Below, piece after piece: positions 3,537 to 47,000 of a DNA stretch of 62,942 nucleotides. Origin of the DNA: Halanaerobiales bacterium (GTDB taxonomy: Bacteria > Bacillota > Halanaerobiia > B1SED10-174). The notes under the pieces were generated by a model. It worked only from the letters and a program-made list of their open reading frames with translations, made no database searches and was not told the DNA's origin. The stretch lies in the NCBI GenBank assembly GCA_003551905.1, contig PUNT01000277.1, positions 1-62,942 of the forward strand, read 5' to 3'. Every line of letters begins with the position of its first letter. Position 1 is the stretch's first letter. Both the position numbers and the translations under genes were made by a program.

Positions 3537-4679
3537 ATGAAAAACAGAGCAGGAGAATATCGAAGGAATTTAACAGATGAGCTTCAGTATAAATCTTTTT
3601 TTCCCAGGCCATTACCTCCAAAACCACCAATTGAAATCGATGAGGAGGCGGTAACTTTACTGGCAAAAGCCAATCGAATCATTGGTGTTTTAGAGGGGCT
3701 TTCACGAAATGTTCCAAATATTGAACTATTTGTATCGATGTATGTTAGAAAAGAAGCCCTCTTATCTTCTCAGATTGAGGGAACGCAGGCGACATTGGAT
3801 GATATTTTAGATCCTAAAATAGAAGAAAATACAAATCGTCATGTAACAGATGTGGTAAATTATATTAAAGCGTCTCAGTATGCGGTTACCAGGCTAAAAG
3901 AACTGCCCATTTGTAATCGTCTTATGAAAGAGACTCAAGCTATACTGCTAGAAGATGTTCGTGGAGAAGAAAGAAATCCCGGAGAATTTAGGCGTAGTCA
4001 AAACTGGATCGGCCCGGCGGGAAGCACACTAAATAATGCCCTTTATATTCCTCCAAATGTAGAGGATATGGAAGTGGCCATGTCTGACTTGGAAAAGTTC
4101 ATTAATGAAGAAGATGAGCTTGATCCACTGATTAAAATAGCCCTTATCCATTATCAGTTTGAAACCATTCACCCATTTTTAGATGGCAACGGCCGGATTG
4201 GGCGTCTGCTTATCAATCTTTTCCTGATGGAAAAGGGGTTATTAAGCTATGAAACCCTTTATATATCATATTTTCTTAAACGTAACAGGATTGAGTATTA
4301 TGACCGCCTTATGGAAGTTCGAATTAAGGGAAATTTTGAACAATGGGTGAAATTCTTTTTAAGGGCAACGAAAGAGTCAGCAGAGGATTCCATTCAGACC
4401 ATTGAAAAACTAGTAAAACTCCACGATAAAAACTGGAAGATCATATCGAACACCGGAAGAGCTGCAAAAACCATCAAGAAGGTATTTTCTTATTTGGAAG
4501 GTAGTCCTATTATTGATATAAAAATAACCAGCAAACAATTAGGTCTTTCTTATAATGCCACTGCCAATGCAGTAAACAAGCTAATGGATTTAGGGGTTTT
4601 AATACAGACAGAGAATGTTCAAAGAAACCGAGTGTTTGCCTACGAAGAGTATTTAAAGATATTGAGACAAGACACATAG
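3537..4679 (+). CDS. Fic family protein (class II, with an N-terminal inhibitory helix motif and a C-terminal winged-helix-like domain)
   Basis: 380 aa. Fic active-site motif HPFLDGNGRIGR. The upstream motif SSQIEG matches the [ST]xxxE[GN] inhibitory-helix motif. An SD-like GGAGATG lies before the ATG. Confidence 0.9.
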   Translation: MKNRAGEYRRNLTDELQYKSFFPRPLPPKPPIEIDEEAVTLLAKANRIIGVLEGLSRNVPNIELFVSMYVRKEALLSSQIEGTQATLDDILDPKIEENTNRHVTDVVNYIKASQYAVTRLKELPICNRLMKETQAILLEDVRGEERNPGEFRRSQNWIGPAGSTLNNALYIPPNVEDMEVAMSDLEKFINEEDELDPLIKIALIHYQFETIHPFLDGNGRIGRLLINLFLMEKGLLSYETLYISYFLKRNRIEYYDRLMEVRIKGNFEQWVKFFLRATKESAEDSIQTIEKLVKLHDKNWKIISNTGRAAKTIKKVFSYLEGSPIIDIKITSKQLGLSYNATANAVNKLMDLGVLIQTENVQRNRVFAYEEYLKILRQDT

Positions 4680-5311: not shown

Positions 5312-5391
5312 TATTATCAGAAGTTCCTAGTTTAATAAACTTGTTTTTTTTGACATAGGTGCTAAAATATTGTCAAGGAAGGAGGCATGCT

Positions 5392-5712
5392 ATGACAGGA
5401 GAAATGGGATTGAATGACCTTCTCCATTATGTGAAAAAAATGAAACAAAAAAGAGGTTTTGATTGGACAACAATGGAGCAGGAGTTTGTTCTCTTGAGTG
5501 AGGAGATAGGGGAACTTGCCCACGAAGTGTGGTGTATACGAAAGAATGATGGAATGATAACTGAAGAAAGAAAGGAGGCACTGGCTTTTGAAGTTGTAGA
5601 TTGCCTCATTTTTCTCATTTCAATTGCCGGAATGGCCGGCATAGAGGATATTGAAGAATACCTGAAAAAAAAGGAATGGCTGAATAAACAGAGGTTTGAG
5701 CAGGTAGATTAG
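5392..5712 (+). CDS. MazG-like nucleotide pyrophosphohydrolase domain protein
   Basis: Contains EEIGELAHEV ... EALAFEVVDCLIFLISIAG, the paired acidic helices of the all-alpha NTP-PPase fold. The ATG at 5392 is preceded by GGAAGGAGG. The ORF track starts at a GTG at 5359. Confidence 0.75.
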   Translation: MTGEMGLNDLLHYVKKMKQKRGFDWTTMEQEFVLLSEEIGELAHEVWCIRKNDGMITEERKEALAFEVVDCLIFLISIAGMAGIEDIEEYLKKKEWLNKQRFEQVD

Positions 5713-5725
5713 CAGATTATTTCAA

Positions 5726-5751
5726 CCAGGGCCTTATTGGCCCTTTTTTAT
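5726..5751 (+). terminator. Rho-independent terminator after the MazG-like gene
   Basis: CCAGGGCC-TTAT-TGGCCCT hairpin followed by TTTTTTATTTT. Confidence 0.6.
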
Positions 5752-5841
5752 TTTGCAGTGGTCGGAGTGCTGCATAACCTTATGCAGTTCTTTGGCATAT
5801 ATTATTATAGATAAGAATATGGAAAAGAGGATCAATAATTA

Positions 5842-6600
5842 ATGATAGATTACCGCCATCACTTTTTAAATACACAGGAGGTTTTCAATAGAATTAAGGT
5901 TGCCCTGGAGGAAAAAAAACCCTTTGCCCTCATCCGGGTTGGAGATGGAGAGGCGAGAGTTCTGGCTCATGATATCCTCATTCCTGTAGGTGGATTTCCT
6001 TCTGTTAAGCTTGCTCGCTTGAAATATGCAGGTGTTGAGTTGCCGGCACCAGATTTGAGGAAAAAAATAATTAATTACCTCAAATGTGCTGAGCTGGTTG
6101 GCCTTAGCGATGTTGAAGGGCCAGGGGCATATCCACTTATTAGAGAAATTCTAGAAAGTCCTCTTATACCACTATATCTAAATGATTTTAACTCTATCTG
6201 CAGTGCGTACATTCACTGGTATTTATATCGGGAAGGGCTTTTTAGAGAATTGTGGCAGGGGCGACGAATATTTCTTCTGGGACGCAGATCCGAAGAAGTA
6301 GCAGGGAAAGTTGAATTCACTGGAGGAGAAGTGGTGGGGTGGGCAAAGATAGAGGGCTGGGGTGATGTGGAGAATTGCCTGAAAGAGGTGGAGAGGGCAG
6401 AAGAATTCCATCTGGCTTTAGTATCTGCAGGAGTCCCTGCCCTGATTTTGTGTCCGGAACTGGCCCGTAAGTATAGAGTTGTGGCAATAGATTTTGGGCA
6501 TCTCATGGATTACTTGCTAGAACCTGAAGGTAGTATTTCCAGGGTGCGCATATCTTCTAAAAAGAAATGGGATGAGAGAAAAAGGGAGGGAAAGAAGTGA
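5842..6600 (+). CDS. GT-D (DUF1792)-like putative glycosyltransferase, paralogue 1 (DxE motif retained)
   Basis: 252 aa. PFALIRVGDGEARVL and the C-terminal LALVSAGVPALILCPELARKYRVVAIDFGH resemble, from memory, the GT-D/DUF1792 pattern (RFGDGE ... LGPTA ... DIGH). It is clearly paralogous to the ORFs at 7334 and 7951. Confidence 0.55.
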   Translation: MIDYRHHFLNTQEVFNRIKVALEEKKPFALIRVGDGEARVLAHDILIPVGGFPSVKLARLKYAGVELPAPDLRKKIINYLKCAELVGLSDVEGPGAYPLIREILESPLIPLYLNDFNSICSAYIHWYLYREGLFRELWQGRRIFLLGRRSEEVAGKVEFTGGEVVGWAKIEGWGDVENCLKEVERAEEFHLALVSAGVPALILCPELARKYRVVAIDFGHLMDYLLEPEGSISRVRISSKKKWDERKREGKK

Positions 6601-7337
6601 AAATAAGACTAACTTCAGTAATCGTTCCTGCCTGGAATGCCCTTAAATATACGAAGATGTGCCTTGATTCCTTGAAGAAATATACTCCTGAACCTTATGA
6701 AGTTATTGTAGTGGATAATGGTTCCAGTGATGGTACAAAGGAATATTTACAGAAAAACAAAAATATAAGATGCATTTTTAATAAGAAAAATCTGGGGTTT
6801 GCCGGAGGCATTAATCAAGGGTTGAAGGTGGCCCGGGGAGAGCACCTGTTATTATTGAATAATGATGTTATTTTAACATACAGGTGGCTTAAAAACATGC
6901 AGAAGTGCCTCTTAAGCAGTAAAAGAATTGGGCTCGTAGGGCCTCGTTCCAACCTGGTAGGGGGACAGCAGGGTAAGATGGGTAAGCTCCCTTACAACAA
7001 TCTTCAGGAAATGGATGAATTTGCTCGCAATTTCAACAGAGTATCTAATCCTAAAAAGTGGTTTTCTGTTAAGACTCTATCAGGGTTCTGTTTATTAATG
7101 TGTAGGACTGTAATGGAAAAAATTGGCTTGCTGGATGAGCGATATAATATTGGGACCAGGGAAGACAGGGATTACTGTCTCAGGGCACATAAAAAAGGAT
7201 ATATTTTAATGTGTGCCGGGGATACATTTGTCTACCACTTTGGCCATAGGACTTTTCAAGCCAATAATCTGGATGTCTGGAAGATTCAGAAGGAGAACAT
7301 GAAGCTATTTCAGGAAAAATGGGGGCATAGGGGATGA
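6597..7337 (+). CDS. Family 2 glycosyltransferase (GT-A fold)
   Basis: 246 aa. SVIVPAWNALKYTKMCLDSL ... VIVVDNGSSDGT ... LLLLNNDV is typical of GT2. There are 4-nt start/stop overlaps with both neighbouring genes. Confidence 0.85.
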   Translation: MKIRLTSVIVPAWNALKYTKMCLDSLKKYTPEPYEVIVVDNGSSDGTKEYLQKNKNIRCIFNKKNLGFAGGINQGLKVARGEHLLLLNNDVILTYRWLKNMQKCLLSSKRIGLVGPRSNLVGGQQGKMGKLPYNNLQEMDEFARNFNRVSNPKKWFSVKTLSGFCLLMCRTVMEKIGLLDERYNIGTREDRDYCLRAHKKGYILMCAGDTFVYHFGHRTFQANNLDVWKIQKENMKLFQEKWGHRG

Positions 7338-7942
7338 GCCACAAAAGGAAGCTGCAGCTGGAGGAAGAAGTGGCCGGGGCTGTAAGAATAGCCCTGGAGA
7401 ATCGACAACCTTTCAGCCTTATCCGTCTGGGGGTTATGGAGAATCTGCTTCTCAAAAAAAAACTGGTCAGAGGCCTGGTGAAACCTACTGAAATTCTTAA
7501 GTGGCTAAAAAAGGCTGACATAATCGGTTTGGATCGCAACCGGCTGGGCAACAGTGTTCTGGTCAAAAATGTGGACCGTTTTGGAGTTTCCTGGACTCAT
7601 GTTGATATTAACTGGCGTCTCTATAAACAAGGAAAAGGGCCCCTTGTAAGATGGGTGAAAAAGCATGCTCTTCTCTTTATAGGTCGCAGGAGCAGCCATT
7701 TAAGAGATAGAGCAATAAAGCTGGGGCTCAATGTTGTAGGAGAGTTTGAGCTAGATTCTCCTGGTAAGCTGGAAGAATCTATAAAGTATCTCAAGAGTTG
7801 TTCTGCCTACGAACTGGCATTAATTTCTTCCGATATAGGCACTCAATGCTTACTGGCCCCCTATGTGGCTGTTAAACAGCGTAAGGTAGCATTGGATCTG
7901 GGTCTGGTTCTTGATGATATGCTGGAAAACTGGAATGGTTAA
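7334..7942 (+). CDS. GT-D-like paralogue 2 (degenerate: DxE replaced by VME, and DFGH by DLGL)
   Basis: 202 aa. It shares PFSLIRLG, LLFIGRRS and LALISS...KVALDLG with paralogues 1 and 3. ATGA overlap with the GT2 gene. Confidence 0.5.
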   Translation: MSHKRKLQLEEEVAGAVRIALENRQPFSLIRLGVMENLLLKKKLVRGLVKPTEILKWLKKADIIGLDRNRLGNSVLVKNVDRFGVSWTHVDINWRLYKQGKGPLVRWVKKHALLFIGRRSSHLRDRAIKLGLNVVGEFELDSPGKLEESIKYLKSCSAYELALISSDIGTQCLLAPYVAVKQRKVALDLGLVLDDMLENWNG

Positions 7943-7950
7943 GGGAGGGG

Positions 7951-8688
7951 ATGGAGGTTATGTATAGAGCTTATGGAGTACCCTTCTTGGGAGCTTATGA
8001 GGTTGCTGGTCAGCTACTGGGAGCTCTGAAGAGAGGACAGGGTTTTTCTCTGGTCCGGCTGGGGGGAGGGGAAACCAAAAGCCTTGGTCACGATATTTTC
8101 ATGCCTTCCCGGGAAATTAATCAGAGATATCGCTATGAGTATGCTGGTGTCAGGCTGCCAGATGAGAGGTTGCGCAGGGAATTGTCCTGGGGAGTTAGGA
8201 ATGCTGATGTGGTTGGAGTTCTGCCGTACCGCCGGGCTCCTGAGCTGATCAGAATTTTTGATTACTTGAAAATCAAGCCCACCCGGATCTGTAGTGCATA
8301 TATCAACTGGATTCTTTTCGATGAAGGCAAGGGTCTCATTAATTCCATTATTGGTTCGCAAAGGCTCTTTCTGGTTGGGCGCAGGGCCCAAGAAGCTCTT
8401 ACTCATGTTAAAAAATTGGGCTGGCAGGTTGAAGGCTTTACCACTCTAGAAGGTTTCTATGATTACCGAAGGGCTTTGAATGAAGTTAAAAAACATAAAA
8501 AAGCCCGACTGATCCTGGTATCAGCAGGAATTCCTGCTGTTGTCCTGTGCTCAAAAATAGCCAGGGAGGCTGGACGGGTAGCTCTGGACTTTGGCCATGT
8601 TATTGACCGGATAATAGATATTGATTTTGGATCCCACAATCTCATAGCTAAAAAGGGTGACTGGGAGCGAAAGCAAAGCAAAAGATAG
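7951..8688 (+). CDS. GT-D-like paralogue 3 (GGE in place of DGE; DFGH retained)
   Basis: 245 aa. GFSLVRLGGGETKSLGHD, YAGVRLP, ICSAYINW, LFLVGRR and LILVSAGIPAVVLC...VALDFGH align with paralogue 1. An alternative ATG lies at 7960. Confidence 0.55.
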   Translation: MEVMYRAYGVPFLGAYEVAGQLLGALKRGQGFSLVRLGGGETKSLGHDIFMPSREINQRYRYEYAGVRLPDERLRRELSWGVRNADVVGVLPYRRAPELIRIFDYLKIKPTRICSAYINWILFDEGKGLINSIIGSQRLFLVGRRAQEALTHVKKLGWQVEGFTTLEGFYDYRRALNEVKKHKKARLILVSAGIPAVVLCSKIAREAGRVALDFGHVIDRIIDIDFGSHNLIAKKGDWERKQSKR

Positions 8689-8740: not shown

Positions 8741-10048
8741 ATGAGAGGGGTGAATACAGTTCTATCAGGTTTGAAGGAAGAGATGGTAGGGAAAATTTTG
8801 GAGAGTTTATCAAAACGCCAGAAAACAAAGGCTCTCAACTTCGTGGATAACTGGGACCTTCTAAAAATTGCTGCTGTTGGGGAGAGGGCTCGAACCGGCC
8901 AACCTCTTAGTGAGCCCTGGGGTTCAACCATGGATTTCCCCTCTTTTCGAGGGCTGGTCTTTTTGCCAGCCCATCTCCAACCTTTTCCTCTTTTGCAGGA
9001 GGAGGAGGTTGACATCAGCACCACCATCGGCCCCAACGCTACTCACCCTCTTACTGTTTCCATGCCAGTTTTCATAACTGGTATGGGCTATGGAGTATCC
9101 CTTTCCCAGGCTGCCCGGATTGCCCTTGCCAGAGGCTCTGCCAGAGGAAGCACAGCTATTAGTTCCGGAGAGGGAGGTTTTGTACCGGTTGAAAGGCAGG
9201 AGAGCAACCGCTATATAGTTCAGTACACCCGGGGGCGATTTTCCAGTAATCCTGCAGATCTGGCAAATGTTGATATGGTAGAGGTAAAGCTTGGTCAGGG
9301 GGCTAGCGCTTCAACCGGCTTCACCGCATCCATTGAGGATTATGAATTTAAAACCCATCTCAGCCTCAGAGAAGAAGAAAGTGATGCGGAAATGCCGGCT
9401 CGCTTTCCGGATATAATGGACTTGCAGGGAATTAAGGCAATGGTTGATGAACTTCGGGAGGTAACCAGCGGTGTACCCATAGGTTTAAAGATAGCAGCTG
9501 GACATATTGAAAAGGACCTGGAACTGGGCCTTGAGGCTGGTTTTGATGTTTTTATACTGGATGGAGCTGAAGGAGGAACCTATGAGAGTCTGGAGATAAC
9601 TATTAATAATTTTGGTATTCCAACCCTGTACGCTGTACCCAGGGCCCACAATTATTTAAATAAGGTGGGGAAAAGGGATCAGGTAAGTCTAATTGCCGCT
9701 GGTGGTATGAGGACCTCCGGTGATTTTCTCAAAGCTTTAGCCTTAGGTGCAGATGCAGTATATGTTGGCTCAGCTGTTTTAATTGCCATGAGTTACAGTC
9801 AATGGAATAAACTACCGGCTGGTGCAACACCAGGGGATCTTTTCTTCTATGGTGGCAAACACACAAATCTTATGGATGTGGAAGAAGGGGCTCAGGGAGT
9901 TGGGAACTTCCTTCTGGCTACCGGAGAGGAGCTAGCAGCTGCTCTCCGGACCATGGGAAAAAGAAGCCTCGGAGAAATAAGTAAAGATGATTTGCAGGCT
10001 CTCGATCCTTTAACTGCAGATATTACCGGAGTGTCTCCAGCATATTGA
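8741..10048 (+). CDS. FMN-binding glutamate synthase family protein (stand-alone GltB domain-2 homologue)
   Basis: 435 aa. TIM-barrel FMN-domain-like segments: PVFITGMGYG, VEVKLGQGA, VFILDGAEGGT and AAGGMRTSGDFLKALALGADAVYVGSA. Confidence 0.8.
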   Translation: MRGVNTVLSGLKEEMVGKILESLSKRQKTKALNFVDNWDLLKIAAVGERARTGQPLSEPWGSTMDFPSFRGLVFLPAHLQPFPLLQEEEVDISTTIGPNATHPLTVSMPVFITGMGYGVSLSQAARIALARGSARGSTAISSGEGGFVPVERQESNRYIVQYTRGRFSSNPADLANVDMVEVKLGQGASASTGFTASIEDYEFKTHLSLREEESDAEMPARFPDIMDLQGIKAMVDELREVTSGVPIGLKIAAGHIEKDLELGLEAGFDVFILDGAEGGTYESLEITINNFGIPTLYAVPRAHNYLNKVGKRDQVSLIAAGGMRTSGDFLKALALGADAVYVGSAVLIAMSYSQWNKLPAGATPGDLFFYGGKHTNLMDVEEGAQGVGNFLLATGEELAAALRTMGKRSLGEISKDDLQALDPLTADITGVSPAY

Positions 10049-10112
10049 AAAATTATCTAAAACATGCTAATATTTCTTTGATCCTTTTAGATCAAAGAAG
10101 GAGGAAGATTAC

Positions 10113-10307
10113 ATGAAGGTAAGAGTTTTAGAAGAAGAGTGTATCAGCTGCGGTCTCTGCATTGATACCTGCCCGGAAGTATTTGAATGGGATGATGATG
10201 AGGATAAAGCCCGGCCCATTCAGGAAGAAGTACCTGAAGGGCAGGAAGACTGTGCCCGGGAAGCTATTGACCTCTGCCCTACAGAAGCTATCGAGGAAAT
10301 AGTGTAG
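10113..10307 (+). CDS. Small 4Fe-4S ferredoxin
   Basis: 64 aa. CISCGLCIDTCP plus a distal CP. Acidic composition. SD GAAGGAGG upstream. Confidence 0.85.
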   Translation: MKVRVLEEECISCGLCIDTCPEVFEWDDDEDKARPIQEEVPEGQEDCAREAIDLCPTEAIEEIV

Positions 10308-10310
10308 ATA

Positions 10311-10341
10311 AAAAACCTCCGGAAATGCCGGAGGTTTTTTG
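10311..10341. terminator. Bidirectional rho-independent terminator between the ferredoxin gene and the convergent ABC exporter gene
   Basis: AAAAA-CCTCCGG-AAATG-CCGGAGG-TTTTTT. Confidence 0.7.
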
Positions 10342-10396
10342 TTGTTAGTTTTACTGGGTTAAGATATGTCAGGGTGCAGGTTTCTGGCCTTTTTGT

Positions 10397-17512: not shown

Positions 17513-18706
17513 GTGAGTATAGGTCTTTTACACCTGAGTTCACCTTTAGGGGACATGGAGAATATAAGCTCCAGTACTGCCAGCTTTTTGCAGGGAATAG
17601 AAAGGAAGCTGGGAGAAAAACTCAAGGAAATCAGCCTTGGAAATTACCAATCTGTGGACCTACCCATCATACTTGTCAAGACCGGGGGGGTTGAAGGAAA
17701 GTTCAAAAAATTATACGAGCAATTACCTGAACCATATATAATCCTAGCTGGGAACACGCACAATGCCCTGGCTGCCTCCCTGGAAATACTGGCTTTTTTG
17801 CGACAGAGGGGTAAAAAAGCAGAAATTATTCATGGGGACATAGAGTATATTAACATCAGACTGAAGGTTCTGGCCAGAGTATTCCAGGTCAGAAAGAAGT
17901 TAACTGGAATCAGGTTGGGAGTCTTAGGTGAACCTTCGGACTGGTTAATTGCAAGTTCCATGGCGTATGAACTGGTGCGAGAGGTTTATGGTATTGAAGT
18001 TTTAGACATATCAATGGAAGAGCTATTCCAGGCAATAGAAGAGGAGCAAAGCCCACCGGTAGCATTCTTTAAGAGATTTTCCCGTAGGAGCATGGAGACA
18101 GAAACCTTAAAAGAAGCTCTCAGAATATACTGTGGCTTGCGCCGGGTATCTAGGGATTATGATCTGCAGGGATTAACTGTTCGCTGTTTTGACCTGCTTG
18201 GTAAGTACAGGAATACTGGCTGCCTGGGGATTGCCCTGCTGCCTGGGGAAGGGATTATTGCAGGTTGCGAAGGAGATCTATCAGCTCTGATCTCCATGGT
18301 TTTGCTGAATTATCTCACCGATAAACCCGCTTTCATGGCCAACCCTTCCAGCATTGATCTGGATAAAAATCAAGCTATTTTAGCCCACTGCACATTGCCT
18401 CTGGAACTGGCAGATAATTATTATCTGGATACTCACTTTGAATCCGGTGAGGGTGTCGGTGTTCGGGGTATAATACCAACAGGGGAGGGGACTGTTTTCC
18501 GTATGGGGGCTGACTGTAAAGGGTATTTTTTATCCCCTGTCAGTATACTGGAGAATACTGAAGAGAGCAATACCTGCCGGACCCAGGTCAGGGTTGAATT
18601 CCTGGAGGATGTAAAGTACTTCTTAAAGGAACCAGTGGGGAATCATCACATATTATGCCCTGGCAACCACAAGGCTCTGGTTGAAGAATTTTTTTACTGG
18701 TTTTAA
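17513..18706 (+). CDS. L-fucose/L-arabinose isomerase-like family protein
   Basis: About 397 aa. GCEGDLSALISMVLLNYLTDKPAFMANP resembles the sugar-isomerase C-terminal domain. The GTG at 17513 lies 7 nt after AAGGAGG. The ORF track starts at a TTG at 17507. Confidence 0.55.
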   Translation: MSIGLLHLSSPLGDMENISSSTASFLQGIERKLGEKLKEISLGNYQSVDLPIILVKTGGVEGKFKKLYEQLPEPYIILAGNTHNALAASLEILAFLRQRGKKAEIIHGDIEYINIRLKVLARVFQVRKKLTGIRLGVLGEPSDWLIASSMAYELVREVYGIEVLDISMEELFQAIEEEQSPPVAFFKRFSRRSMETETLKEALRIYCGLRRVSRDYDLQGLTVRCFDLLGKYRNTGCLGIALLPGEGIIAGCEGDLSALISMVLLNYLTDKPAFMANPSSIDLDKNQAILAHCTLPLELADNYYLDTHFESGEGVGVRGIIPTGEGTVFRMGADCKGYFLSPVSILENTEESNTCRTQVRVEFLEDVKYFLKEPVGNHHILCPGNHKALVEEFFYWF

Positions 18707-20106
18707 GTTCTTCTACGTTGGAAGATCTCTTTTTTCAAAGTTTGCCAGTCCTCCTGCAGGTGTTTCAATGCAGGAGGTTTTGTTTTTTCCTGTCCGTAGA
18801 ATTCTTGCAGGAAAGCATTGAGAATTCCATCTGTTTGCCGGCGAAATTTGGGAAGGTGTTCATGGATGTGGGGCTGGAAGTTTTGTGGGGTAATATGGGG
18901 TGGTTTTTTTGTTCCCTTTAAAGCCAGAGAAATGAGAAGAGCGTTGTAGATTTCCACCGCTGTTTTGGGGTTATTTAAAAAACGTCTAAGTCTCAAGCCT
19001 GTAAGTCTTCTATCCAGTGTTCCTCGCAGCCCATCCAGCCAGTCACTTCCCCAGTTCTTTAGTGCAGATATGGAAGCATAAGATTCCCGGGTTTCCTCAG
19101 TTATCTCAACTTTTTCATCACGGCTGGCTATGATGATCAGGTACATGATTGTGGCCAGGAATATGATGACACCAGCAATGGTTCCAATAAACATTAAGAA
19201 TTCAAAAATTAAAGGGATTGCTTCCAGAGCTGGCGTTATTTCCGGCACTTCTTCTGGCAGGTGAAGATCCAGATCCTGAAAGGTAACTTCTTCGTGTTCA
19301 AAGAATCGGGAAAAAATCCTGTAAAAAAGGTACATTGCATAACCCAGTATGAATCCAAAAAGCTGTAGCAGGAGCCGAATCAAATTCAGGAGGAAGAAGA
19401 AAGGAACTTGCAGTATTCTGGTCAGGCCAGGAATAAAAAATGCTGTTACAGCTGCTAGCAGAACCAGTAGAGGTGCCCCTATAAAGAACAGAGGCGACCA
19501 GATACTCATGGAGTTGCCTTCTCCCTGTTCAAACCCTCCTGAGTATTCTTTAATCCGTAGAAGGGATGTTGCAGCAATAGCTGCTGCAAACCACAGGATC
19601 ATGAGGGTGGTTAATTGGGGTAGTACTTCGTCCCATATCCCTGTCACATGGGCAGTGATTAGATAAATTGCTGCCCCCATTGTTCCCCATATGAGATGAC
19701 GCTGCATGCTATAATTGCTGGAAGGCTGGCTTCCCAGGCGTACGCCCAGAACCCAGAAGACAAGTCCCAGCAACATACGGTATGGCCATGGGAAAGGCAG
19801 GTAGATGCCAGATAGGCCGGGCAAAAACGTTGCAGCCAGGGGTAGCAGCAGGCTTACCAGGGAAAACAGAACAGTAACCGCATATCTTTTTATCAGAACA
19901 AGTTTATCCAGTAATTTACTGATCCAGGAGGCAATAAGGGAAGCTAAAAGGGCCAGGGCTATCAGGCAGGCGAGAAATGCCAGGACACCTTCTTCCTCAA
20001 CCAGGCTGCTAACCAGAAAAACCCAGGGAGCGAAGATTAGGATAATGCTTAGCCGAGCCAGGACGTCAGTTGCCCAGCTCAGCCAGGGTAATTTGGGGAA
20101 CTTCAT
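18703..20106 (-). CDS. Polytopic membrane protein with a DUF4129-like C-terminal domain (third gene of the MoxR operon)
   Basis: Many TM helices, with a soluble C-terminus. The ATG at 20106 is preceded by AGGAGGGGGG. The ORF track extends to 20199 inside the upstream gene. Confidence 0.55.
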   Translation of the reverse strand: MKFPKLPWLSWATDVLARLSIILIFAPWVFLVSSLVEEEGVLAFLACLIALALLASLIASWISKLLDKLVLIKRYAVTVLFSLVSLLLPLAATFLPGLSGIYLPFPWPYRMLLGLVFWVLGVRLGSQPSSNYSMQRHLIWGTMGAAIYLITAHVTGIWDEVLPQLTTLMILWFAAAIAATSLLRIKEYSGGFEQGEGNSMSIWSPLFFIGAPLLVLLAAVTAFFIPGLTRILQVPFFFLLNLIRLLLQLFGFILGYAMYLFYRIFSRFFEHEEVTFQDLDLHLPEEVPEITPALEAIPLIFEFLMFIGTIAGVIIFLATIMYLIIIASRDEKVEITEETRESYASISALKNWGSDWLDGLRGTLDRRLTGLRLRRFLNNPKTAVEIYNALLISLALKGTKKPPHITPQNFQPHIHEHLPKFRRQTDGILNAFLQEFYGQEKTKPPALKHLQEDWQTLKKEIFQRRRT

Positions 20107-21289
20107 CCCAGCCACCCCCCTCCTGCATGGCATATAAAGGGATAGAAGGGTCAATTTTTTGAGGAAGTTCCTGGCCAGTGTAGATGATGGAAACTGCAAA
20201 CCCCTGTTTTTTCTCTCGCCGGAGCTGTGAGAGAATCTTTTCAGTTATAATTGAGGTGATGAGTACAAGCTTTTTCGTAAAATACTCCTGCCGTCTGGCT
20301 TTTGCAATTATTTCCTCGCACCTGACCGTTGAAAAAGGCACCAGCCGGGCCATAGTTTCCAAACATCTTCGCAAATGGGCTGAGCCGGAGCCCATCTTCA
20401 CCGCTGCAGGATTTCTCATTCCCCTGATATATCCGGCAAAGAAGACAGCATATCGATATTTGCTTTCATTGCAGTGATGTATTATGGAGGCAGCAGTGAC
20501 AAGGTTTTTCTCCAGGAGGCTTCGGTCCAGGCTCCAGGAATGTTTTCCCGTGGAGATGTTGACAATAATTTTCAGGTCACTGACAAAAGAAGCCTCCAGG
20601 ACCCTGGTATGGAGTTTCCCGGTCCTTGCTGTTGCTTTCCATTCGATACGGGAGAAGGGATCGGAAGGGACATATTCCCTGATACCCCGGAAACGGGAAG
20701 GATCTTCAAAGATCCAGCTGAAGGTTCCCTGCTTGCCAAAAGGGGTAACTGCCAGGGGAAGCTTACCCTGAAGTTCCACGAGACGGGGATATACCAGGAG
20801 CCTTTCCTGAACATGGATAGTTTTTTTGCCTTCTGCGAACCCGAAGGGGTCAGCAATTCTGATGATCACAGGCCCGAAGAAGTATTCACCCCGGCCAGTG
20901 CAGATAATGTCAAAACGCTGGGAAATTCTTTCAAACCAGCCTACAGTTATTACCTGCTCATACAGGACATGCTTACCAATATCTTTTATCCCCCGGCCGG
21001 CATATTCAAGTTCTTTTGGACATTTAATTGATACTTTTAACCAGGGTAGAGGAAAAGGTTGATCATTTTCAATTTCCAGGTGCATGGTTACCCGGTCCCA
21101 GGGCTTTGCCCGGTGGGTTTGCAGGTAGATACGGCAGGAAACCCTGTTAAGGAGATGATGAGCCCAGAAAAGAGACACTACACCCAGGAGTACCAAAATA
21201 ATCCCGGGGATGAAAATAATTGGCTGTCCAAAGGGGAGGCCCACCAGGACAAGAAAAATACCCAGAAAGGTAATGCTTTTCGGTCTCAC
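20066..21289 (-). CDS. DUF58 domain-containing protein
   Basis: 407 aa. Two N-terminal TM helices and then a DUF58-like region (FRGIREYVPSDPFSRIEWKATARTGKLHTRV). 4-nt overlap with moxR. Confidence 0.85.
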   Translation of the reverse strand: MRPKSITFLGIFLVLVGLPFGQPIIFIPGIILVLLGVVSLFWAHHLLNRVSCRIYLQTHRAKPWDRVTMHLEIENDQPFPLPWLKVSIKCPKELEYAGRGIKDIGKHVLYEQVITVGWFERISQRFDIICTGRGEYFFGPVIIRIADPFGFAEGKKTIHVQERLLVYPRLVELQGKLPLAVTPFGKQGTFSWIFEDPSRFRGIREYVPSDPFSRIEWKATARTGKLHTRVLEASFVSDLKIIVNISTGKHSWSLDRSLLEKNLVTAASIIHHCNESKYRYAVFFAGYIRGMRNPAAVKMGSGSAHLRRCLETMARLVPFSTVRCEEIIAKARRQEYFTKKLVLITSIITEKILSQLRREKKQGFAVSIIYTGQELPQKIDPSIPLYAMQEGGGWDEVPQITLAELGN

Positions 21290-22290
21290 TGCTTATTTAC
21301 CTCCTGGAAGGGGCCCACCGGTACCGGCGTATCTTCCAGTACTTCTTCAATTAGTGAAGGCGCTGTTATCTCAAATAGAGATGATGCAGTATCTCGAACC
21401 AGGCGGTGAGCAAGCACGGGTAATGCGGCATCCTGAACATCATCTGGCAAAACAAAATCCCTGTTCCTGATGAGAGCCAGGGCCCGGGCTGCTCTAGCCA
21501 GATACAGGGTGCCTCGGGGACTTACCCCAAGCTGAACTCCTTCCAGGGACCTGGTGCTCCGGGTAATTGACAGTATATAATCCAGGACAGGGGTTGAGAG
21601 ATATACTTTCTCAAAAGCATGGTAAAGATTCTTTATAGTTTCTTTGCCAGCTGTCAGGGAACTTGAATCTCTTTCCACAGTGTTTTCACTTAAGAAACGC
21701 CTGATGATGGTCTTTTCTCCTTCTTCTCCTGGATAACCTAAATTCAGGCACATGAAAAATCTGTCCAGCTGTGCTTCGGGAAGGGGAAAGGTTCCTTCCA
21801 TTTCAACAGGATTCTGTGTAGCCAGGACCATGAAGGGCGAAGAGAGCTCATAAGTGGTTCCGTCAATTGTCACAGTATTCTCCTGCATGCATTCCAGAAG
21901 ACTGGCCTGAGTTCTGGGAGTAGCCCGGTTAATTTCGTCAGCCAGGAGAATGTTGGTGAATACCGGCCCAGACATGAATTGAAACTCATTTGTTTTCTGG
22001 TTGAAAACCCTGGTGCCGGTAACATCAGAGGGGAGAAGATCAGGAGTAAATTGAATCCTTTTGAAGTCCAGGTCCAGGAGATGGGCAAACACCCTGGCCA
22101 GCAAGGTTTTTCCCACACCGGGCACATCTTCCAAAAAAATATGCCCCCGACAGATCAGGGCTGCCAGCATGAGTTCTAGAATTCTATCATCCTCAATAAC
22201 AACTACTTCCTTGATGGCAGAACACATTGCTTCTTTAAAAGAAGCGGGGGTGAAGCTATCAGGTTGCAAAAGCTGTACACTCCTTTCCAT
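21286..22290 (-). CDS. MoxR-family AAA+ ATPase
   Basis: 334 aa. Walker A LEDVPGVGKT, Walker B LLADEINRA and the MoxR-like C-terminus GVSPRGTLYLARAARALA. Confidence 0.9.
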   Translation of the reverse strand: MERSVQLLQPDSFTPASFKEAMCSAIKEVVVIEDDRILELMLAALICRGHIFLEDVPGVGKTLLARVFAHLLDLDFKRIQFTPDLLPSDVTGTRVFNQKTNEFQFMSGPVFTNILLADEINRATPRTQASLLECMQENTVTIDGTTYELSSPFMVLATQNPVEMEGTFPLPEAQLDRFFMCLNLGYPGEEGEKTIIRRFLSENTVERDSSSLTAGKETIKNLYHAFEKVYLSTPVLDYILSITRSTRSLEGVQLGVSPRGTLYLARAARALALIRNRDFVLPDDVQDAALPVLAHRLVRDTASSLFEITAPSLIEEVLEDTPVPVGPFQEVNKQ

Positions 22291-23287: not shown

Positions 23288-25534
23288 ATGTCTCTAAAAG
23301 AGAAAGATGAACCAGCCCACAAAATTACCACCCAGATTTTCTGGCAGGGCAAACTTCTCAGTCTGGAAACTGGTGTAAGGGTTACAGAAGTTATTGCTGC
23401 CAGCTGGGGAGATATGATCCCGGATGTGCAGGTAGGGAAAGAGGGAATAGTTCATCTGAACATAGAAAACGCCATGGATAAAGAAATAAAGGCCAGCGTT
23501 CACATCCTTGATGCAGGAGGATTGCTGGCAGTACCTCTGGAAAAAGACGTTAATCTGCCAGCTCGGGGTAAGGGTGGTCTGGATATCAAACTGGAGGGCA
23601 GGAAAAGAGGATTCTATGAACTTAAATTAATGGTCTCATATAATTTTCGCGGTGAAAAACTGCAGGCCCGACCCCAGATCTTGCCTGTTTGTGTCAGGGG
23701 GCCAGGGGAAGTGATGCAAGGGGCAACCCAGGAGGAAGCTTTTCTAATCAATGACCAATTACTCCTCAAAGTGGCCTTAAAAGGAGGAGAAGGAAAGGTT
23801 TTTGAGAAGAATGGAAGAAAGAAAGAGATCCTGGAGATGGAAACGGATCTCATAGGACCTAAATACTACCCGCCGGTAATCTCTGAATTACATCTGAAGC
23901 CGGAGTTTGCCGGTTCTACACTGCTTCTGCATGGAGAACTGCCGGGGAGAGAGCGCTTGTATTTTTGCCGGGAAATTACCCTGGATGGCAACATCATATA
24001 TAATAGCTATACTGTAGCCAATGGTGGTACTACAGAAGAAAAACTGCTTATCCGCCTGGCTGGGACTGTTTCTCCTGAATATATTGACCGGGTGGCCATT
24101 CCCCTGGATGGACGGGTTATTATTGAGGATTTTGATCTGGATACATTCCCCGGTCTGGGTAATTTGCCCCGGGATGAAGAACGTTATACTGAAGATTGGT
24201 ATGCTCTAATGGGGGAAGATCTGGTCCTGGGCTCAGTAATACCTCCTGGTGAGGGCAAATATCAGGTAGGTGAATCGCAACTTTTGACCCGTTCCATACC
24301 ATTAGTGGTGCCTTCATGTACCGAGAAAAAGGTAACGGGGGTAACCTTTTATGCTGGACCGGGGGACTGGAGAACTGTGGCCCGTCTGGCAGCAACTCTG
24401 GGCAGGGTTAAAGGAGAGGAGTTGTGTGAATCAGGTGTCCTTCAGCCGGAATGGCAGGATGATATTCCAGTACTGCCTTATGGGAAGGGAACAGGACACC
24501 TTACCGTGTACTATCCCTGTGCCAAGTCCTTGTCAGGTAGAATAACTGTTGAATACCCCCCTGCTTTCAAGAAGGAGAAGGAAGATTTTAAAACTGTTTT
24601 CCAGGATAAAAAACCGTGGAAAAACCAGCTGGATTTTATAGGACCTGTTGCTGACAAAGGCATATATCCACTGCAAGTAAAGATTGAAGCCGGCAGCAAT
24701 ATCCGGAATCAAGAGCTTCCAGTGATCATTAGCGGGGGGAAAGGAGAAGTAAAAGTTGAGAAGGATGGTTCCCTCTGGAGGCTGGAAAATGGACTTCTTG
24801 AGCTCATGGTGGATGAGGATTTTGCCGGTTCAGGAGTTAGTCTCAAAATTGGGGATCTGGAAGTCCTGGAAAGCCCCTATCCTCAACCCGGCACCTATTA
24901 CTGGATAAATCCCTGGTATGGTGGCATAAATCCAATCCTTATCCCCTTGCCAAGTCGCACCTATCCAGGTTATCTATGGCAGGAAAAATTTGTGGGACAG
25001 GAAGTTTCAAGAACAGGCAGGTCAGGAAAACGCTGGCAGGGCTTGTTGCTGGATGTAGAGCCTCAAAGGCAGGAATTGTCAGGTCTAAAGCTCTCTCTGA
25101 GCTACCTGCTTATAGAGGATAGCCCTTTTTTAGCACTGGTTTATGGGATAAAAAATCATACAGATTACCGGCAAAAACTAAAAATTCAGTGGGGTATTTT
25201 CCTGGAACCGGGTATCTTTACTTCTTATAAAACAATTAAAGGAGATAAAATGATTGAGAGACTGCTGGAGCAGGAGGGAAGCTTTCTCATGGGCAAGGAG
25301 CTTTTCCACCTGCAGGGCAAGACGGATTTTCTGATTGTGACAGGGAAGGAAAATATCCTTTCTCTCGAGGAGAATCCCAATCCCTTCCGGCAGTTCCTGC
25401 AGGCTGGCCCTTTCACCGGGCTAGAGCTTGCTCCTGGAGAAGAAAAAGAGCTGGTTACCTACTTGATTTTACCCCAGCAGGTTAACAGTACCTCCATCTA
25501 TGGATGTTTGAATAATAAAAAGGGATTGTTCTAA
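23288..25534 (+). CDS. Large hypothetical protein (748 aa), no recognised domain
   Basis: A long ORF with normal composition. No clear SD before the ATG at 23288. It is in the same frame as the GNAT ORF, separated only by a TGA plus 11 sense codons. Confidence 0.65.
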   Translation: MSLKEKDEPAHKITTQIFWQGKLLSLETGVRVTEVIAASWGDMIPDVQVGKEGIVHLNIENAMDKEIKASVHILDAGGLLAVPLEKDVNLPARGKGGLDIKLEGRKRGFYELKLMVSYNFRGEKLQARPQILPVCVRGPGEVMQGATQEEAFLINDQLLLKVALKGGEGKVFEKNGRKKEILEMETDLIGPKYYPPVISELHLKPEFAGSTLLLHGELPGRERLYFCREITLDGNIIYNSYTVANGGTTEEKLLIRLAGTVSPEYIDRVAIPLDGRVIIEDFDLDTFPGLGNLPRDEERYTEDWYALMGEDLVLGSVIPPGEGKYQVGESQLLTRSIPLVVPSCTEKKVTGVTFYAGPGDWRTVARLAATLGRVKGEELCESGVLQPEWQDDIPVLPYGKGTGHLTVYYPCAKSLSGRITVEYPPAFKKEKEDFKTVFQDKKPWKNQLDFIGPVADKGIYPLQVKIEAGSNIRNQELPVIISGGKGEVKVEKDGSLWRLENGLLELMVDEDFAGSGVSLKIGDLEVLESPYPQPGTYYWINPWYGGINPILIPLPSRTYPGYLWQEKFVGQEVSRTGRSGKRWQGLLLDVEPQRQELSGLKLSLSYLLIEDSPFLALVYGIKNHTDYRQKLKIQWGIFLEPGIFTSYKTIKGDKMIERLLEQEGSFLMGKELFHLQGKTDFLIVTGKENILSLEENPNPFRQFLQAGPFTGLELAPGEEKELVTYLILPQQVNSTSIYGCLNNKKGLF

Positions 25535-41221: not shown

Positions 41222-42676
41222 ATGATTGCTGGTGGTGATTTAATGAAAGAAAGTGAAGAGGGTAGACCTCTTATGGATGACAGTAGTCTTTATTCCATTC
41301 TCAATGCCCTTAATGAGGGTATTCACATAGTGGATAAAAAAGGGCGGACTGTTTTTTTTAATGATATGGCAGCCAGAATAGATGGATTAAAAAAAGAAGA
41401 AGTTTTAGGTAAAAATATTTTTGAGGTTTATCCCTCCCTGACACTAGAAAGCAGCACCTTAATGCAGGTTCTCAAAACAGGAAAGGCTATTAGAAACATG
41501 CAGCAGACTTTTATAAATTTTCGGGGGGAGAAGATAACCACCATAAATACCACTGTACCCATCCGATTTGCCAGTGATGAGGTTGGGGCCATGGAGATAT
41601 CCCAGGACATTACTCGCTTCAAAGAGCTGGTGGAAACTCTCAACAGATTTCGCCATCAATTGAATTCTAACCTCACCGATGGGCATACCGAACAACACAG
41701 GGAAAGCAATGATTCCTTTAACAGGATAATTGGTGACAGCAACCAAATGATGACTGCCCTGGAACAGGCCAGGAAAGCTGCTTTAACTACCTCTCCTGTT
41801 CTCATAAGTGGAGAGGTTGGTACTGGCAAAGAGCTATTTGCCCGGAGCATTCACAATAATAGTTCTCGACAGGAAAAACCATTCGTGGTGCAGGACTGTG
41901 GGGCTCTGCCACTGGAGCTTTTGGGTAGCACCCTTTTTGGTGCTGGGGGCAGATCAGGTCTTTTTGAGCAGGCCCGGGGGGGCACCATACTCCTGGAAAG
42001 GGTGGATTCCCTGGACTTCCCTCTACAGGCCAGGGTTCTGGGAGTCCTGCAGGACAGAAAACTCAGAAGGGTTGGTGGTAGCCAGGAAATGAGCATTGAT
42101 GTTCGAATTATTACTACCATCAATAGTGCAGCTGAACAGGCTATGGAGGAAGGAAAGCTCAGGCAGGATCTTTTTTACCGCTTAAGTGTTGTTTATATTA
42201 AGATTCCGGCACTACGCCAGCGACTGGAAGATTTGCCGGTTCTGATAGAATATTTTATTGAAGGTTACAATAAGATGTTTGACCGGTCAGTGAGAGGGTT
42301 TGAAGAGGACTTGCTGGAGATTTTTTCTGCTTATGAATGGCCGGGAAATGTCCGGGAACTGCAGCATGCCCTGGAAAGCGCAGTAAACTCTGTTGACAAT
42401 GATAGCTATATAGGTTTTAAGGATTTGCCGGAGTACCTGCAGGAAAAGTTCAAGAGCAAAGAGAGCAGTTATCATGAGAGACTGGATGTTAATTCTTTGC
42501 TGAAAAAGGGTGATTCTCTCCCCCATGTCATTGAAGAAATGGAAAAGGAAATGGTGGCTGATGCCCTGGATAAGTCTGAAGGCAATATCAGTCAAGCAGC
42601 AAAAATTCTGGGTATTTCCAGGCAATCCCTTCAGTATAAGATGAAGAAGTTTAAGCTCTGGGAGGGTAGAGGATAA
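41222..42676 (+). CDS. PAS-domain transcriptional regulator of the bacterial enhancer-binding-protein (AAA+) type, lacking the GAFTGA loop
   Basis: 484 aa. PAS domain, Walker A GEVGTGKE, WPGNVREL and a Fis-type HTH ISQAAKILGISRQSLQYKMKKF. Between LFG and FEQA there are only 7 residues, so there is no GAFTGA. The Walker B position reads LLER. Confidence 0.8.
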   Translation: MIAGGDLMKESEEGRPLMDDSSLYSILNALNEGIHIVDKKGRTVFFNDMAARIDGLKKEEVLGKNIFEVYPSLTLESSTLMQVLKTGKAIRNMQQTFINFRGEKITTINTTVPIRFASDEVGAMEISQDITRFKELVETLNRFRHQLNSNLTDGHTEQHRESNDSFNRIIGDSNQMMTALEQARKAALTTSPVLISGEVGTGKELFARSIHNNSSRQEKPFVVQDCGALPLELLGSTLFGAGGRSGLFEQARGGTILLERVDSLDFPLQARVLGVLQDRKLRRVGGSQEMSIDVRIITTINSAAEQAMEEGKLRQDLFYRLSVVYIKIPALRQRLEDLPVLIEYFIEGYNKMFDRSVRGFEEDLLEIFSAYEWPGNVRELQHALESAVNSVDNDSYIGFKDLPEYLQEKFKSKESSYHERLDVNSLLKKGDSLPHVIEEMEKEMVADALDKSEGNISQAAKILGISRQSLQYKMKKFKLWEGRG

Positions 42677-43602
42677 TGAATTTATATTTAATCGTTGCTT
42701 TTCTTATCATAGGTTTTTTTGTGGGGTACTGGCAGTTTTTCCCGGCTGTTTTTTATCGCTTAACAGGTTATATTGCCGGTGCTGGATTATTTGTGCTTCT
42801 CCTGGCCATGGGGGCCAGAATTGGTGCTGAAGAAGCTATTATTAGTGAGCTGGACCATATGGGGTTACAGGCCCTGGCCCTGGCCTTGGGCACTATTGTA
42901 GGCAGCACCCTGTTTTTGAAGATTCTATCAATCTATATACCTTTACATTGCCGGGTTGATAAGGATATGGAAGGAGTAAAAGTGAAAGGCAGGAGATGGG
43001 GATTGACCCTGCTTATTGTGTTTGCTCTCATCCTGGGTCTATCAGGTGGTTATTTTTTCCTGGCAGAGGATTTTGTTGCATACCTGGACCTTATAACCAC
43101 CTACGCTTTGGGAATTCTGCTCCTGGGAGTAGGTATTGACCTGGGGAGAAACCGGAAAGTTCTGGTTTTGGCCAGATCTGCAGGTTGGTATCTCTTCTTA
43201 ATTCCTGTTGTTGTTGCTCTTGGGAGCCTTCTGGGAGCAGGGCTGGTGGGTCTTTCTCTGGGACTTTTAAGCAGCGAATCTCTGGCCATTGGAGCTGGTT
43301 TTGGCTGGTACAGTTTGTCCGGAATAATTATTACCAATCTTCACAGCGTGGAACTGGGAACACTTGCTTTTCTCACCAATGTTTTCCGGGAAATTCTGGC
43401 CATACTCATGATTCCCCTGATTGTAAGGTTTTTTGGGAAAGTGGCCAGTATTGCTCCCGGCGGAGCCACCACCATGGATGTTACTCTCCCCATAATCAAA
43501 AATATAGCCGGGGAGGAAGTGGTTATCCCGGCATTCATCAGTGGCGTGGTTCTTTCCTTCCTGGTTCCGCTTTTGGTTCCCCTGTTCATAAACTTTTTAT
43601 GA
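42676..43602 (+). CDS. LysO/YbjE-like (DUF340) membrane transporter
   Basis: 308 aa polytopic protein. Glycine-rich TM helices fit DUF340. Its start overlaps the regulator's stop by 1 nt. Confidence 0.6.
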   Translation: MNLYLIVAFLIIGFFVGYWQFFPAVFYRLTGYIAGAGLFVLLLAMGARIGAEEAIISELDHMGLQALALALGTIVGSTLFLKILSIYIPLHCRVDKDMEGVKVKGRRWGLTLLIVFALILGLSGGYFFLAEDFVAYLDLITTYALGILLLGVGIDLGRNRKVLVLARSAGWYLFLIPVVVALGSLLGAGLVGLSLGLLSSESLAIGAGFGWYSLSGIIITNLHSVELGTLAFLTNVFREILAILMIPLIVRFFGKVASIAPGGATTMDVTLPIIKNIAGEEVVIPAFISGVVLSFLVPLLVPLFINFL

Positions 43603-43618
43603 AATATATGAAAGCAGG

Positions 43619-44707
43619 GTGGCTATGAAGAAAGGACTTATTGGAGATATCTCCAGAGAAAAAGTAAAAAGCGTTGCCATAATTGGCCTGGCCAAAAATG
43701 CTGGCAAAACTGTTACCTTTAACACCATTGTTGAGGAGGCGGCACAAGAGGGCATTAGCCTGGGACTTTTATCCTATGGCCGGGATGGAGAATTGGTAGA
43801 TAGTGTGACACTGCAGGAAAAACCAAAGATATTTATTCCACCTGGTACCCTTTTCGTTACTGCCCAAAGAGCGCTGGAAAAAGGTTCAGTGCCTGCTGAA
43901 AAAGTATTAGAAACCGGTTATTTCTCAGTTATGGGTGAAGTTAACGTGTACCGGGCCCTGGACAGGGGAGGTTATGCAGAACTTGTAGGTATTAATTCTA
44001 CATCACGCCTGCAAAGGATAAAGGACTATCTGCAGGGGCGGGTTGATCTTATGCTGGTGGATGGGGCCCTGGATCGCCGGAGCTCAGCAGTGCCAACATT
44101 GACAGATGGAGTAATTGTGGCCACCGGGGCAGTTTTGGGCAATACAGAGGATTTTGTTATTTTCAGGACCGTTAACGAACTGCAGAAACTCACATTACCT
44201 CAGGTCACAGACTCCAGATTAAAGGAAATGGCCCGGGAGGCTATGGAAGCTGCCAGTATAACAATTATTAAAAGATCTGGAGAACTGGAAAAAGTGAAAG
44301 GACTTTCTACCTTCCAGGCCCAGGAGAAAATATTCAAAAACAGGTATATGTTGAATGATGCCTCAGCAATTATTTTTTCCGGCGCTCTCATTGACAGTTT
44401 TTTGGAGAAAGCGGTTTTTCCTGAGATGGTAAGGGATTGTAAGATTTTGGTCCGGGACGGCACCAGAGTGTTTCTTAACTGGCGTAACATGAATTTACTC
44501 AAAGAATATAATTTGCAGTTACTGGTAATCAATCCTGTGCAAGTTTTAGGTGTCACAGTGAACCCTACCAGTCCTTACAGTGCACCCCTTGACTCGCAAA
44601 AACTGGTACTGGGGCTCAAAAAAGCCCTGGTCAGGTTGCCGGTTTATGATCTCAAGGGGGAAGGATATCAGGCTAAAAGGGGGGCTTTTGTTGGAGGAAA
44701 AAATTAG
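43619..44707 (+). CDS. Hypothetical protein with an N-terminal P-loop-like motif
   Basis: 362 aa. VAIIGLAKNAGKT (GxxxxGKT) near the N-terminus and LMLVDGALDR as a possible Walker B. It lies directly upstream of kamD and overlaps it. Confidence 0.45.
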   Translation: MAMKKGLIGDISREKVKSVAIIGLAKNAGKTVTFNTIVEEAAQEGISLGLLSYGRDGELVDSVTLQEKPKIFIPPGTLFVTAQRALEKGSVPAEKVLETGYFSVMGEVNVYRALDRGGYAELVGINSTSRLQRIKDYLQGRVDLMLVDGALDRRSSAVPTLTDGVIVATGAVLGNTEDFVIFRTVNELQKLTLPQVTDSRLKEMAREAMEAASITIIKRSGELEKVKGLSTFQAQEKIFKNRYMLNDASAIIFSGALIDSFLEKAVFPEMVRDCKILVRDGTRVFLNWRNMNLLKEYNLQLLVINPVQVLGVTVNPTSPYSAPLDSQKLVLGLKKALVRLPVYDLKGEGYQAKRGAFVGGKN

Positions 44708-46986: not shown

Positions 46987-47000
46987 GTTAATAATGGGAG

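Follow-up and report, generated by a model that had tools for sequence, protein, structure and literature searches.

To our knowledge, GT-D is the least explored of the glycosyltransferase folds, and the streptococcal DUF1792 enzymes are the only proteins with this fold that have been studied. In the GT-B fold, the glycosylation of serine-rich repeat adhesins involves GtfA and GtfB (Gtf1 and Gtf2), an active and an inactive protein whose complex has been proven. In the GT-D enzyme dGT1 (GalT1) of Streptococcus parasanguinis (structures 4pfx and 4phr, with 5v4a from S. sanguinis), the DUF1792 domain forms the N-terminal part of a fused chain and an SpsA-like GT-A domain the C-terminal part, and sugars are attached in succession by the two (PMC5063993). 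The Asp-X-Glu motif of DUF1792 coordinates Mn2+ (PMC6493773). Here we analyzed a stretch of 62,942 nucleotides (nt) from a Halanaerobiales bacterium (contig PUNT01000277.1, hereafter the window), in which three genes for paralogous GT-D-like proteins, named P1, P2 and P3, are packed together with a gene for a GT2 glycosyltransferase (named GT2) in the order P1, GT2, P2, P3. The same four genes occur in two further lineages, and we propose, with no more than even confidence, that the cassette is a translationally coupled, self-contained system for building a glycan.

The original prediction, made from the DNA alone, described four tightly packed open reading frames (ORFs), and the ORF listing contains all of them as described. 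They lie on the forward strand: P1 at 5842..6600, encoding a canonical GT-D-like protein of 252 amino acids (aa) that is the putative catalytic transferase (motifs RVGDGE, VSAG and DFGH); GT2 at 6597..7337, encoding a protein of 246 aa with a GTG start and the GT-A fold; P2 at 7334..7942, encoding a short, degenerate GT-D-like protein of 202 aa (RLGVME, SSD in place of SAG, and DLGL); and P3 at 7960..8688, in an ORF that opens at 7951, encoding a GT-D-like protein with an Asp-to-Gly exchange (RLGGGE) that is otherwise canonical in VSAG and DFGH. Both predicted overlaps can be read directly, the GTGA that joins the P1 stop to the GT2 start at 6597-6600, with GGGAGGG upstream of it, and the ATGA that joins the GT2 stop to the P2 start at 7334-7337. 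The gap of 8 nt given for the P2-P3 junction is correct for a start at ATG 7951, but it widens to 17 nt with the likelier start at ATG 7960. The TAA stop of P2 (7940-7942) is followed by GGGAGGGG and then by ATG 7951. Since this Shine-Dalgarno sequence (in the region 7943-7962) directly abuts ATG 7951, and since both the NCBI gene call for P3 (242 aa) and the N-termini of the P3 orthologues in two uncultured lineages, L003 (a Logan assembly; MYEDYG) and L009 (a JGI metagenome contig; VYATYN), concur, translation of P3 most likely starts at ATG 7960 rather than at 7951.

That P1, P2 and P3 are mutual paralogues, as predicted, is borne out by pairwise comparison, with 35% identity between P1 and P3 (E 9e-42), 29% between P1 and P2 (9e-18) and 28% between P3 and P2 (3e-14); the relationship is unambiguous and far beyond chance. 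The family to which they had been assigned needs correction. All three match PF22882, the 'GT-D fold-like domain', at E values of 1e-54 (P1), 5.8e-21 (P2, in two stretches) and 1.8e-52 (P3) and with 185.5, 75.2 and 178.1 bits, respectively, against a cut-off of 27. For the related NF040628 (GT-D_rel), which has a 75-bit cut-off, P1 (147.6) and P3 (142.1) pass and P2 (56.5) falls below. DUF1792 itself (PF08759, which we take to be family GT101 in CAZy) had been named in the original prediction, but it is matched by P3 alone, with 19.3 bits (E 1.1e-3) where the cut-off is 27, and by neither P1 nor P2. These below-threshold scores rule out direct membership in DUF1792, and by profile matching the three proteins belong to PF22882, a separate family.

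The broader claim, that the paralogues are relatives with the GT-D fold, stands on these PF22882 scores together with structure comparison. We built AlphaFold2 models of P1 and P2 on a 32-sequence alignment, which reached a predicted local distance difference test (pLDDT) score of 94.5 and 94.0, respectively, and compared them with the PDB using Foldseek. The top three matches of both models were the DUF1792 structures 5v4a, 4phr and 4pfx, with E values of 8e-8 to 4e-7 and template modelling (TM) scores of 0.55-0.60 for P1 and E values of 1e-4 to 3e-4 and TM scores of 0.56-0.63 for P2, and the alignments cover the full length. In a profile search of the PDB with the PF22882 family, the blocks SLiRlGdGE and AiDfGH align to SVVRFGDGE and AIDLGH of 4pfx/4phr (E 0.0039). 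A hydrophobicity scan gave no convincing membrane-spanning segment in any of the four proteins of the cassette; the sole hydrophobic peak corresponds to a strand and a helix buried in the core of the fold. The assignment of the fourth gene to the GT2 glycosyltransferases is likewise upheld (PF00535, E 5.8e-28, 98.4 bits against a cut-off of 23.3). Its translation carries VVDNGSSDGT, LLLNNDV and TREDRDYC, all kept in L003 and L009; going by GT2 enzymes in general, VVDNGS would hold the nucleotide-binding Asp, LLNND would be the DxD-type motif and EDRD would contain the catalytic ED.

In order to place the motif states of the three paralogues in the context of their family, we searched 1.84 billion representatives exhaustively (E <= 1e-3), which gave 239 clusters at 50% identity and marks PF22882 as a sizeable sister family of DUF1792, and determined motif frequencies from an alignment of 170 family domains. 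Arg32, Gly34, Glu37, Asp217 and Gly219 occur in 93-97% of these domains, Asp35 in 76% and His220 in 75%. Where Asp35 is missing, in roughly a quarter of the domains, about half carry His (19 domains) and the others Gly, Ser, Asn, Ile, Ala or Thr. As predicted, the DxE motif is kept solely by P1, the N- and C-terminal motifs being RVGDGE and DFGH in P1, RLGGGE and DFGH in P3, and RLGVME and DLGL in P2; the Glu of the motif is retained in P3 (GGE) and in P2 (VME). We then scored the 33 positions at which at least 70% of the family agree, of which P1 matches 29, P3 30 and P2 19. Among the signature residues scored (R-x-G-D-G-E, G64, G147, S/A-A-G and D-F-G-H), P3 lacks D35 alone. P2 lacks D35, G36, Y62, G64 (96% conserved), G197 (95% conserved) and H220, and it also lacks 28 profile positions, the YAGV loop among them. 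The blocks YAGV.LP, ICSAYI.W and VSAG.P, which had been described as common to all three proteins, are shared by P1 and P3 but absent from P2. The GGGE variant and a degenerate member of the P2 type were each found in this operon type alone, across the family alignment and the loci that we compared.

These states bear on the predicted arrangement of one catalytic protein with two degenerate partners, which is upheld in part. P2, with 19 of 33 positions, does look like a pseudoenzyme and is plausibly a non-catalytic subunit, and P1 is the putative catalytic transferase. The label 'degenerate' is unwarranted for P3, however, because it matches 30 of the 33 positions, has the best-conserved orthologues of the three and lacks an Asp that is often absent in the family; to judge from its sequence, P3 may be an active enzyme that uses metal differently, or else serve as a binding subunit. 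A separate observation concerns the C-terminus. P1 (6535-6597) and P3 (8640-8685) end in a Lys/Arg-rich helix with a conserved Trp, which is also present in the orthologues from L003 and L009 (KKKWDERK, KGDWERKQ, RERWKTM, KHLWRQN and KRQWREK among these helices) and is missing from P2. By analogy with the C-terminal helix of TagA, it could, speculatively, be a membrane-associating or partner-binding tail.

An alignment-based scan for related loci returned one genome locus and four metagenome loci. The gene order proved to be conserved in relatives: L003 and L009 both carry the same four genes in the same order with overlapping or near-abutting junctions. Each paralogue keeps its own motif states in all three lineages, with GDGE at the N-terminus, SAG in the middle and DFGH at the C-terminus of the P1 orthologues, GGGE, SAG and DFGH in those of P3, and GVME or GNAE, SSD and D(L/M)GL in those of P2. 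The identity to the orthologues in L003 and L009, respectively, is 51% and 43% for P1, 46% and 37% for P2, and 62% and 52% for P3, which makes P3 the most and P2 the least conserved of the three paralogues; GT2 is 66% identical to its orthologue in L003. Orthologues are therefore 37-66% identical, as against 25-35% for paralogues within one genome, and in a rough neighbour-joining tree each orthogroup is monophyletic and lies in a different part of the family. Both observations indicate that the triplication predates the three lineages and that all three copies have been kept under purifying selection. The flanks of the cassette differ completely in L003, which suggests that the cassette behaves, and moves, as a unit.

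We further examined how members of the family are fused and which genes adjoin them. Scanning ten long family members with Pfam, we found the GT-D-like domain fused to GT2, in either order, in six, with P0029 and P0096 sharing the order seen in the cassette; further partners among the ten are GT4, sulfotransferase, methyltransferase and kinase domains. Tandem GT-D-like domains occur in P0025, P0127 (which also has a GT4 domain) and P0163, and in each of them the first domain alone keeps (D/H)xE. By analogy, we read these tandem proteins as the single-chain equivalent of a canonical copy with its degenerate partner. Taken together, the fusions support a functional linkage of GT-D-like proteins with GT2 and with a partner that lacks the motif. 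As separate genes, too, GT2 and GT-D-like genes adjoin each other (L005, L006, L008 and L014). Of the ten non-operon loci checked, seven (L015 and L016, which carry the same gene set, among them) have CgeB/YkvP-like genes (PF13524 with PF12996) beside the more distant relatives, and several of the seven also hold rhamnose-pathway, sugar-nucleotide, pyruvyl-transferase, GT4 or fucosyltransferase genes. The neighbourhood of one relative contains a YhcN/YlaJ spore lipoprotein gene, and the named hosts of relatives are Paenibacillus, Cohnella and Hydrogenispora. Because of these neighbours and hosts, the gene content suggests that the PF22882 family is linked to spore-surface glycans.

In the mechanism that we propose for the cassette, four soluble cytoplasmic proteins would build or extend a glycan on some acceptor. 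P1 and GT2 would be the catalytic glycosyltransferases and would probably carry out consecutive steps, like the fused GT-D and GT-A domains of dGT1. Consecutive action of these two is supported, and a heteromer made plausible, by the fusions, by the adjacency of GT2 in other loci and by the architecture of dGT1. P3, ancient and strongly constrained, most likely still binds a nucleotide-sugar or the acceptor, and may either catalyze a third transfer, with metal used in an altered way, or be a subunit that confers specificity. P2 keeps the fold and would most likely pair with an active protein, as a structural or chaperone subunit without catalysis of its own. A physical complex of all four proteins is plausible, in view of the conserved overlapping genes and the Rosetta-stone fusions.

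A simpler arrangement would be an assembly line of four independent active glycosyltransferases, with neither an obligate complex nor a pseudoenzyme, in which the tight packing of the genes reflects co-expression alone, and a number of observations weigh in its favor or otherwise against the mechanism just outlined. Loci in which two to five GT-D-like paralogues, mostly canonical, cluster together are common (L005, L006, L008) and fit independent enzymes equally well; about 24% of family domains have another residue, frequently His, Ser, Asn, Gly or Ile, in place of the Asp of DxE, which makes loss of the motif a weak guide to inactivity; and P3 departs little from the canonical sequence and is highly conserved. 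Moreover, the operon is seen in three uncultured lineages alone, two of them on truncated contigs, and the Pfam and NCBIfam sweeps of the window yielded no gene for donor-sugar synthesis, for an acceptor or for export. Glycosyltransferase activity is itself something that we infer for these proteins, as our literature search returned no mention of the PF22882 family and no characterized member. What speaks against four independent enzymes is above all P2, which has lost the Asp, the His, G64, G197 and the conserved 28-position segment, together with the tandem fusions, in which a motif-bearing domain is joined to a motif-less one. We regard the assembly line as doubtful, if still the main contender. 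The loss of the Asp from P2 and P3, and the shortened and fastest-evolving sequence of P2, could also be taken to mean that one or both are decaying duplicates without a function. This last reading is ruled out by conservation, and we give it next to no credence: P2 and P3 remain intact as ORFs in all three lineages, at an identity of merely 37-62%, and show the same variant motifs in each, P3 is the most conserved paralogue, and the models of P1 and P2 fold with a pLDDT of about 94.

Doubt about the activity can be carried further, to the view that the GT-D-like proteins are not glycosyltransferases and instead perform another reaction on a glycan or other substrate, or process RNA in the manner of Cas6. 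The absence of a characterized member leaves room for this, the sequence likeness to DUF1792 is marginal in both the PF08759 score and the profile search of the PDB, and the sulfotransferase, methyltransferase and kinase fusions could point the same way, as could the PADLOC profile PDLC01719 ('typeIV_Cas6 / Cas6_8_IVD'), which matches P1 (8.8e-13, model positions 5-233 of 255), P3 (2.6e-14) and P2 (7.5e-5). Yet the fold and both DUF1792 signature blocks are common to the family, and its members are fused or adjacent to GT2 and lie within sugar-nucleotide and glycan clusters; a role outside glycosyl transfer seems improbable. The Cas6 reading in particular, which would imply a type IV-D CRISPR system, was rejected, as the window contains no CRISPR array or repeat, the Pfam and NCBIfam sweeps found no cas gene, and the fold is GT-D rather than of the RNA recognition motif (RRM) type. 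The name of PDLC01719 is probably misleading: it may bear a wrong label, or GT-D-like proteins may have gone into its making, and false Cas6 calls would then follow. A role away from surface glycans would also follow if the cassette were cargo of a defence or mobile island that modifies a phage or host molecule. About 1.2 kb upstream lies a gene for a Fic/DOC protein (Fic_N and Fic domains; 3537-4679, forward strand) to which the SoFic anti-phage model aligns almost from end to end (E 3.2e-116), a small MazG/dUTPase-like NTP pyrophosphohydrolase (5359-5712, forward strand; weak Pfam, NCBIfam and PHROG matches) is encoded directly upstream, and the wholly different flanks in L003 are those expected of a cassette that moves as a unit. 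We nevertheless consider such cargo very improbable, given that the glycosyltransferase proteins match no defence-system model other than the Cas6 profile, that the GT-D-like proteins have no PHROG match, that the G+C content of the cassette is unremarkable (0.43, against 0.41-0.47 nearby) and that relatives reside in polysaccharide clusters and not in defence islands. On another contig of this organism (L002), P1 again follows the MazG-like gene.

For the coupled system that we favor, the target would be a cell-surface or spore-surface glycan. The original prediction noted that no polysaccharide export gene and no serine-rich adhesin gene lies nearby, and none was found in the Pfam and NCBIfam sweeps of the larger ORFs of the window; neither was a sporulation gene in the ORFs scanned across the 62.9 kb, nor a CgeB-like gene when we used a hidden Markov model built from six CgeB-like neighbours of relatives. 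The region upstream of P1 offers a different kind of evidence. A candidate promoter at 5777..5804 on the forward strand, 38 nt upstream of the P1 start codon, reads AC-17-CATAnnnTA and resembles what we take, from B. subtilis, to be the consensus of the mother-cell factors sigma-K and sigma-E. This pattern, AC-17-CATATATTA, has five matches in the window as against 1.26 expected, and the block TAACC-N15-GGCATATA.T..TATAGATA upstream of P1 has a conserved counterpart in front of the L003 operon; the consensus, derived from B. subtilis, is a short one, and the L003 block also admits a reading as a TG-extended -10 site. The spacer 5' of P1 yielded no sigma-70-like site. These features make the site a candidate promoter of the mother-cell type. 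A spore-surface target of the cassette is possible, though well short of an even chance, and for this cassette it is speculative, as neither a CgeB-like gene nor a sporulation gene was found in the window; the description of the host as a sporeformer in the original prediction is likewise conjectural. The host itself belongs to a deep-branching lineage of Bacillota, as its GatB (692-2125) is merely 55-59% identical to the nearest named relatives, from Halanaerobiales and Thermoanaerobacterales (Halothermothrix, Fuchsiella, Anoxybacter, Caldanaerobacter and metagenome-assembled genomes of Halanaerobiales). The most far-reaching form of our proposal, a first heteromeric machine with the GT-D fold in which P2, as a dedicated pseudo-glycosyltransferase of ancient origin, and P3, as a variant in the metal motif, join P1 and GT2, expressed from a mother-cell-type promoter to decorate the spore or cell surface in deep-branching Bacillota, strikes us as unlikely.

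The transcription unit is delimited upstream by a terminator-like hairpin at 5728..5744 on the forward strand (stem AGGGCC...GGCCCT, followed by a T run), which comes after the MazG-like gene as its own terminator and marks the 5' boundary of the unit. No Rfam family was found near the operon, leaving a riboswitch or RNA leader without support. Downstream of P3, the same strand encodes an FMN protein with a glutamate-synthase domain (8741-10048; PF01645), for which the alternative start ATG 8783 has a better ribosome-binding site than 8741, and a small 4Fe-4S ferredoxin of 64 aa (10113-10307; PF13370), with a strong terminator 3' of it (10307-10343, forward strand). Between 8688 and 10307 we found no terminator-like site except weak intragenic ones, and the two genes (8741..10343) are possibly co-transcribed with the cassette; whether they form part of it is uncertain. 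The L003 and L009 contigs both stop at P3, so conservation of these downstream genes lies outside the comparison.

Elsewhere in the window, an apparent lysine-fermentation cluster (41222-49528, forward strand) encodes a PAS/sigma-54 activator, a LysO-type exporter, a KamB reactivase, the alpha and the B12-binding beta subunit of lysine 5,6-aminomutase, and a thiolase. In an otherwise anaerobe-like genome, a large-subunit catalase with a C-terminal DJ-1/PfpI-like domain (56642-58759, forward strand) is adjoined by an ABC uptake operon for Zn/Mn that includes a DtxR-type repressor (58789-61909). Four ORFs of 177-748 aa, at 18703-20199 and 54811-55347 on the reverse strand and at 23288-25534 and 53590-54390 on the forward strand, have no Pfam or NCBIfam match; the first of them adjoins a DUF58/MoxR-type AAA_3 pair at 20066-22290.

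Being made up of four small soluble proteins, the cassette offers a compact and easy experimental entry to an unstudied family. It could answer whether GT-D-like proteins are glycosyltransferases, whether the Asp of DxE is dispensable and whether the GT-D fold can serve as a non-catalytic partner. A role of the family in spore-surface glycans, if true, would bring that field a new class of enzyme.

Among known systems, TagA/TarA of wall teichoic acid synthesis (GT-E) were the next-best Foldseek matches after DUF1792 and share a Rossmann-like core (TM 0.42-0.63); with the P1 model, their E values fall short of the DUF1792 values by three to five orders of magnitude. TagA/TarA differ in topology, have no DxE motif and are metal-independent (PMC6493773). 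The PF22882/NF040628 proteins of Bacillota polysaccharide clusters resemble the cassette in having several paralogues per locus with GT2 adjacent, whereas no CgeB/YkvP-like, rhamnose or sugar-nucleotide genes were found within the 62.9 kb of the window. With GtfA-GtfB it shares the concept of a dead paralogue retained as an obligate partner, although its fold is GT-D-like and its complex is a predicted one. In contrast to dGT1, the proteins of the cassette belong to PF22882 and score below the PF08759 threshold, the units are encoded by separate genes with translational coupling and are not domains of one chain, the GT-D-like unit is present as three paralogues, two of them without the Asp, and no serine-rich repeat adhesin or accessory Sec system was found nearby. 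The family as such is already catalogued, and what is new is the variation, a conserved cassette that combines a canonical, a single-site-variant and a strongly degenerate paralogue. In common with dGT1, it has the same fold (in the P1 and P2 models), the RxGDGE and DxGH blocks and the pairing of a GT-D-type unit with a GT-A/GT2 unit.

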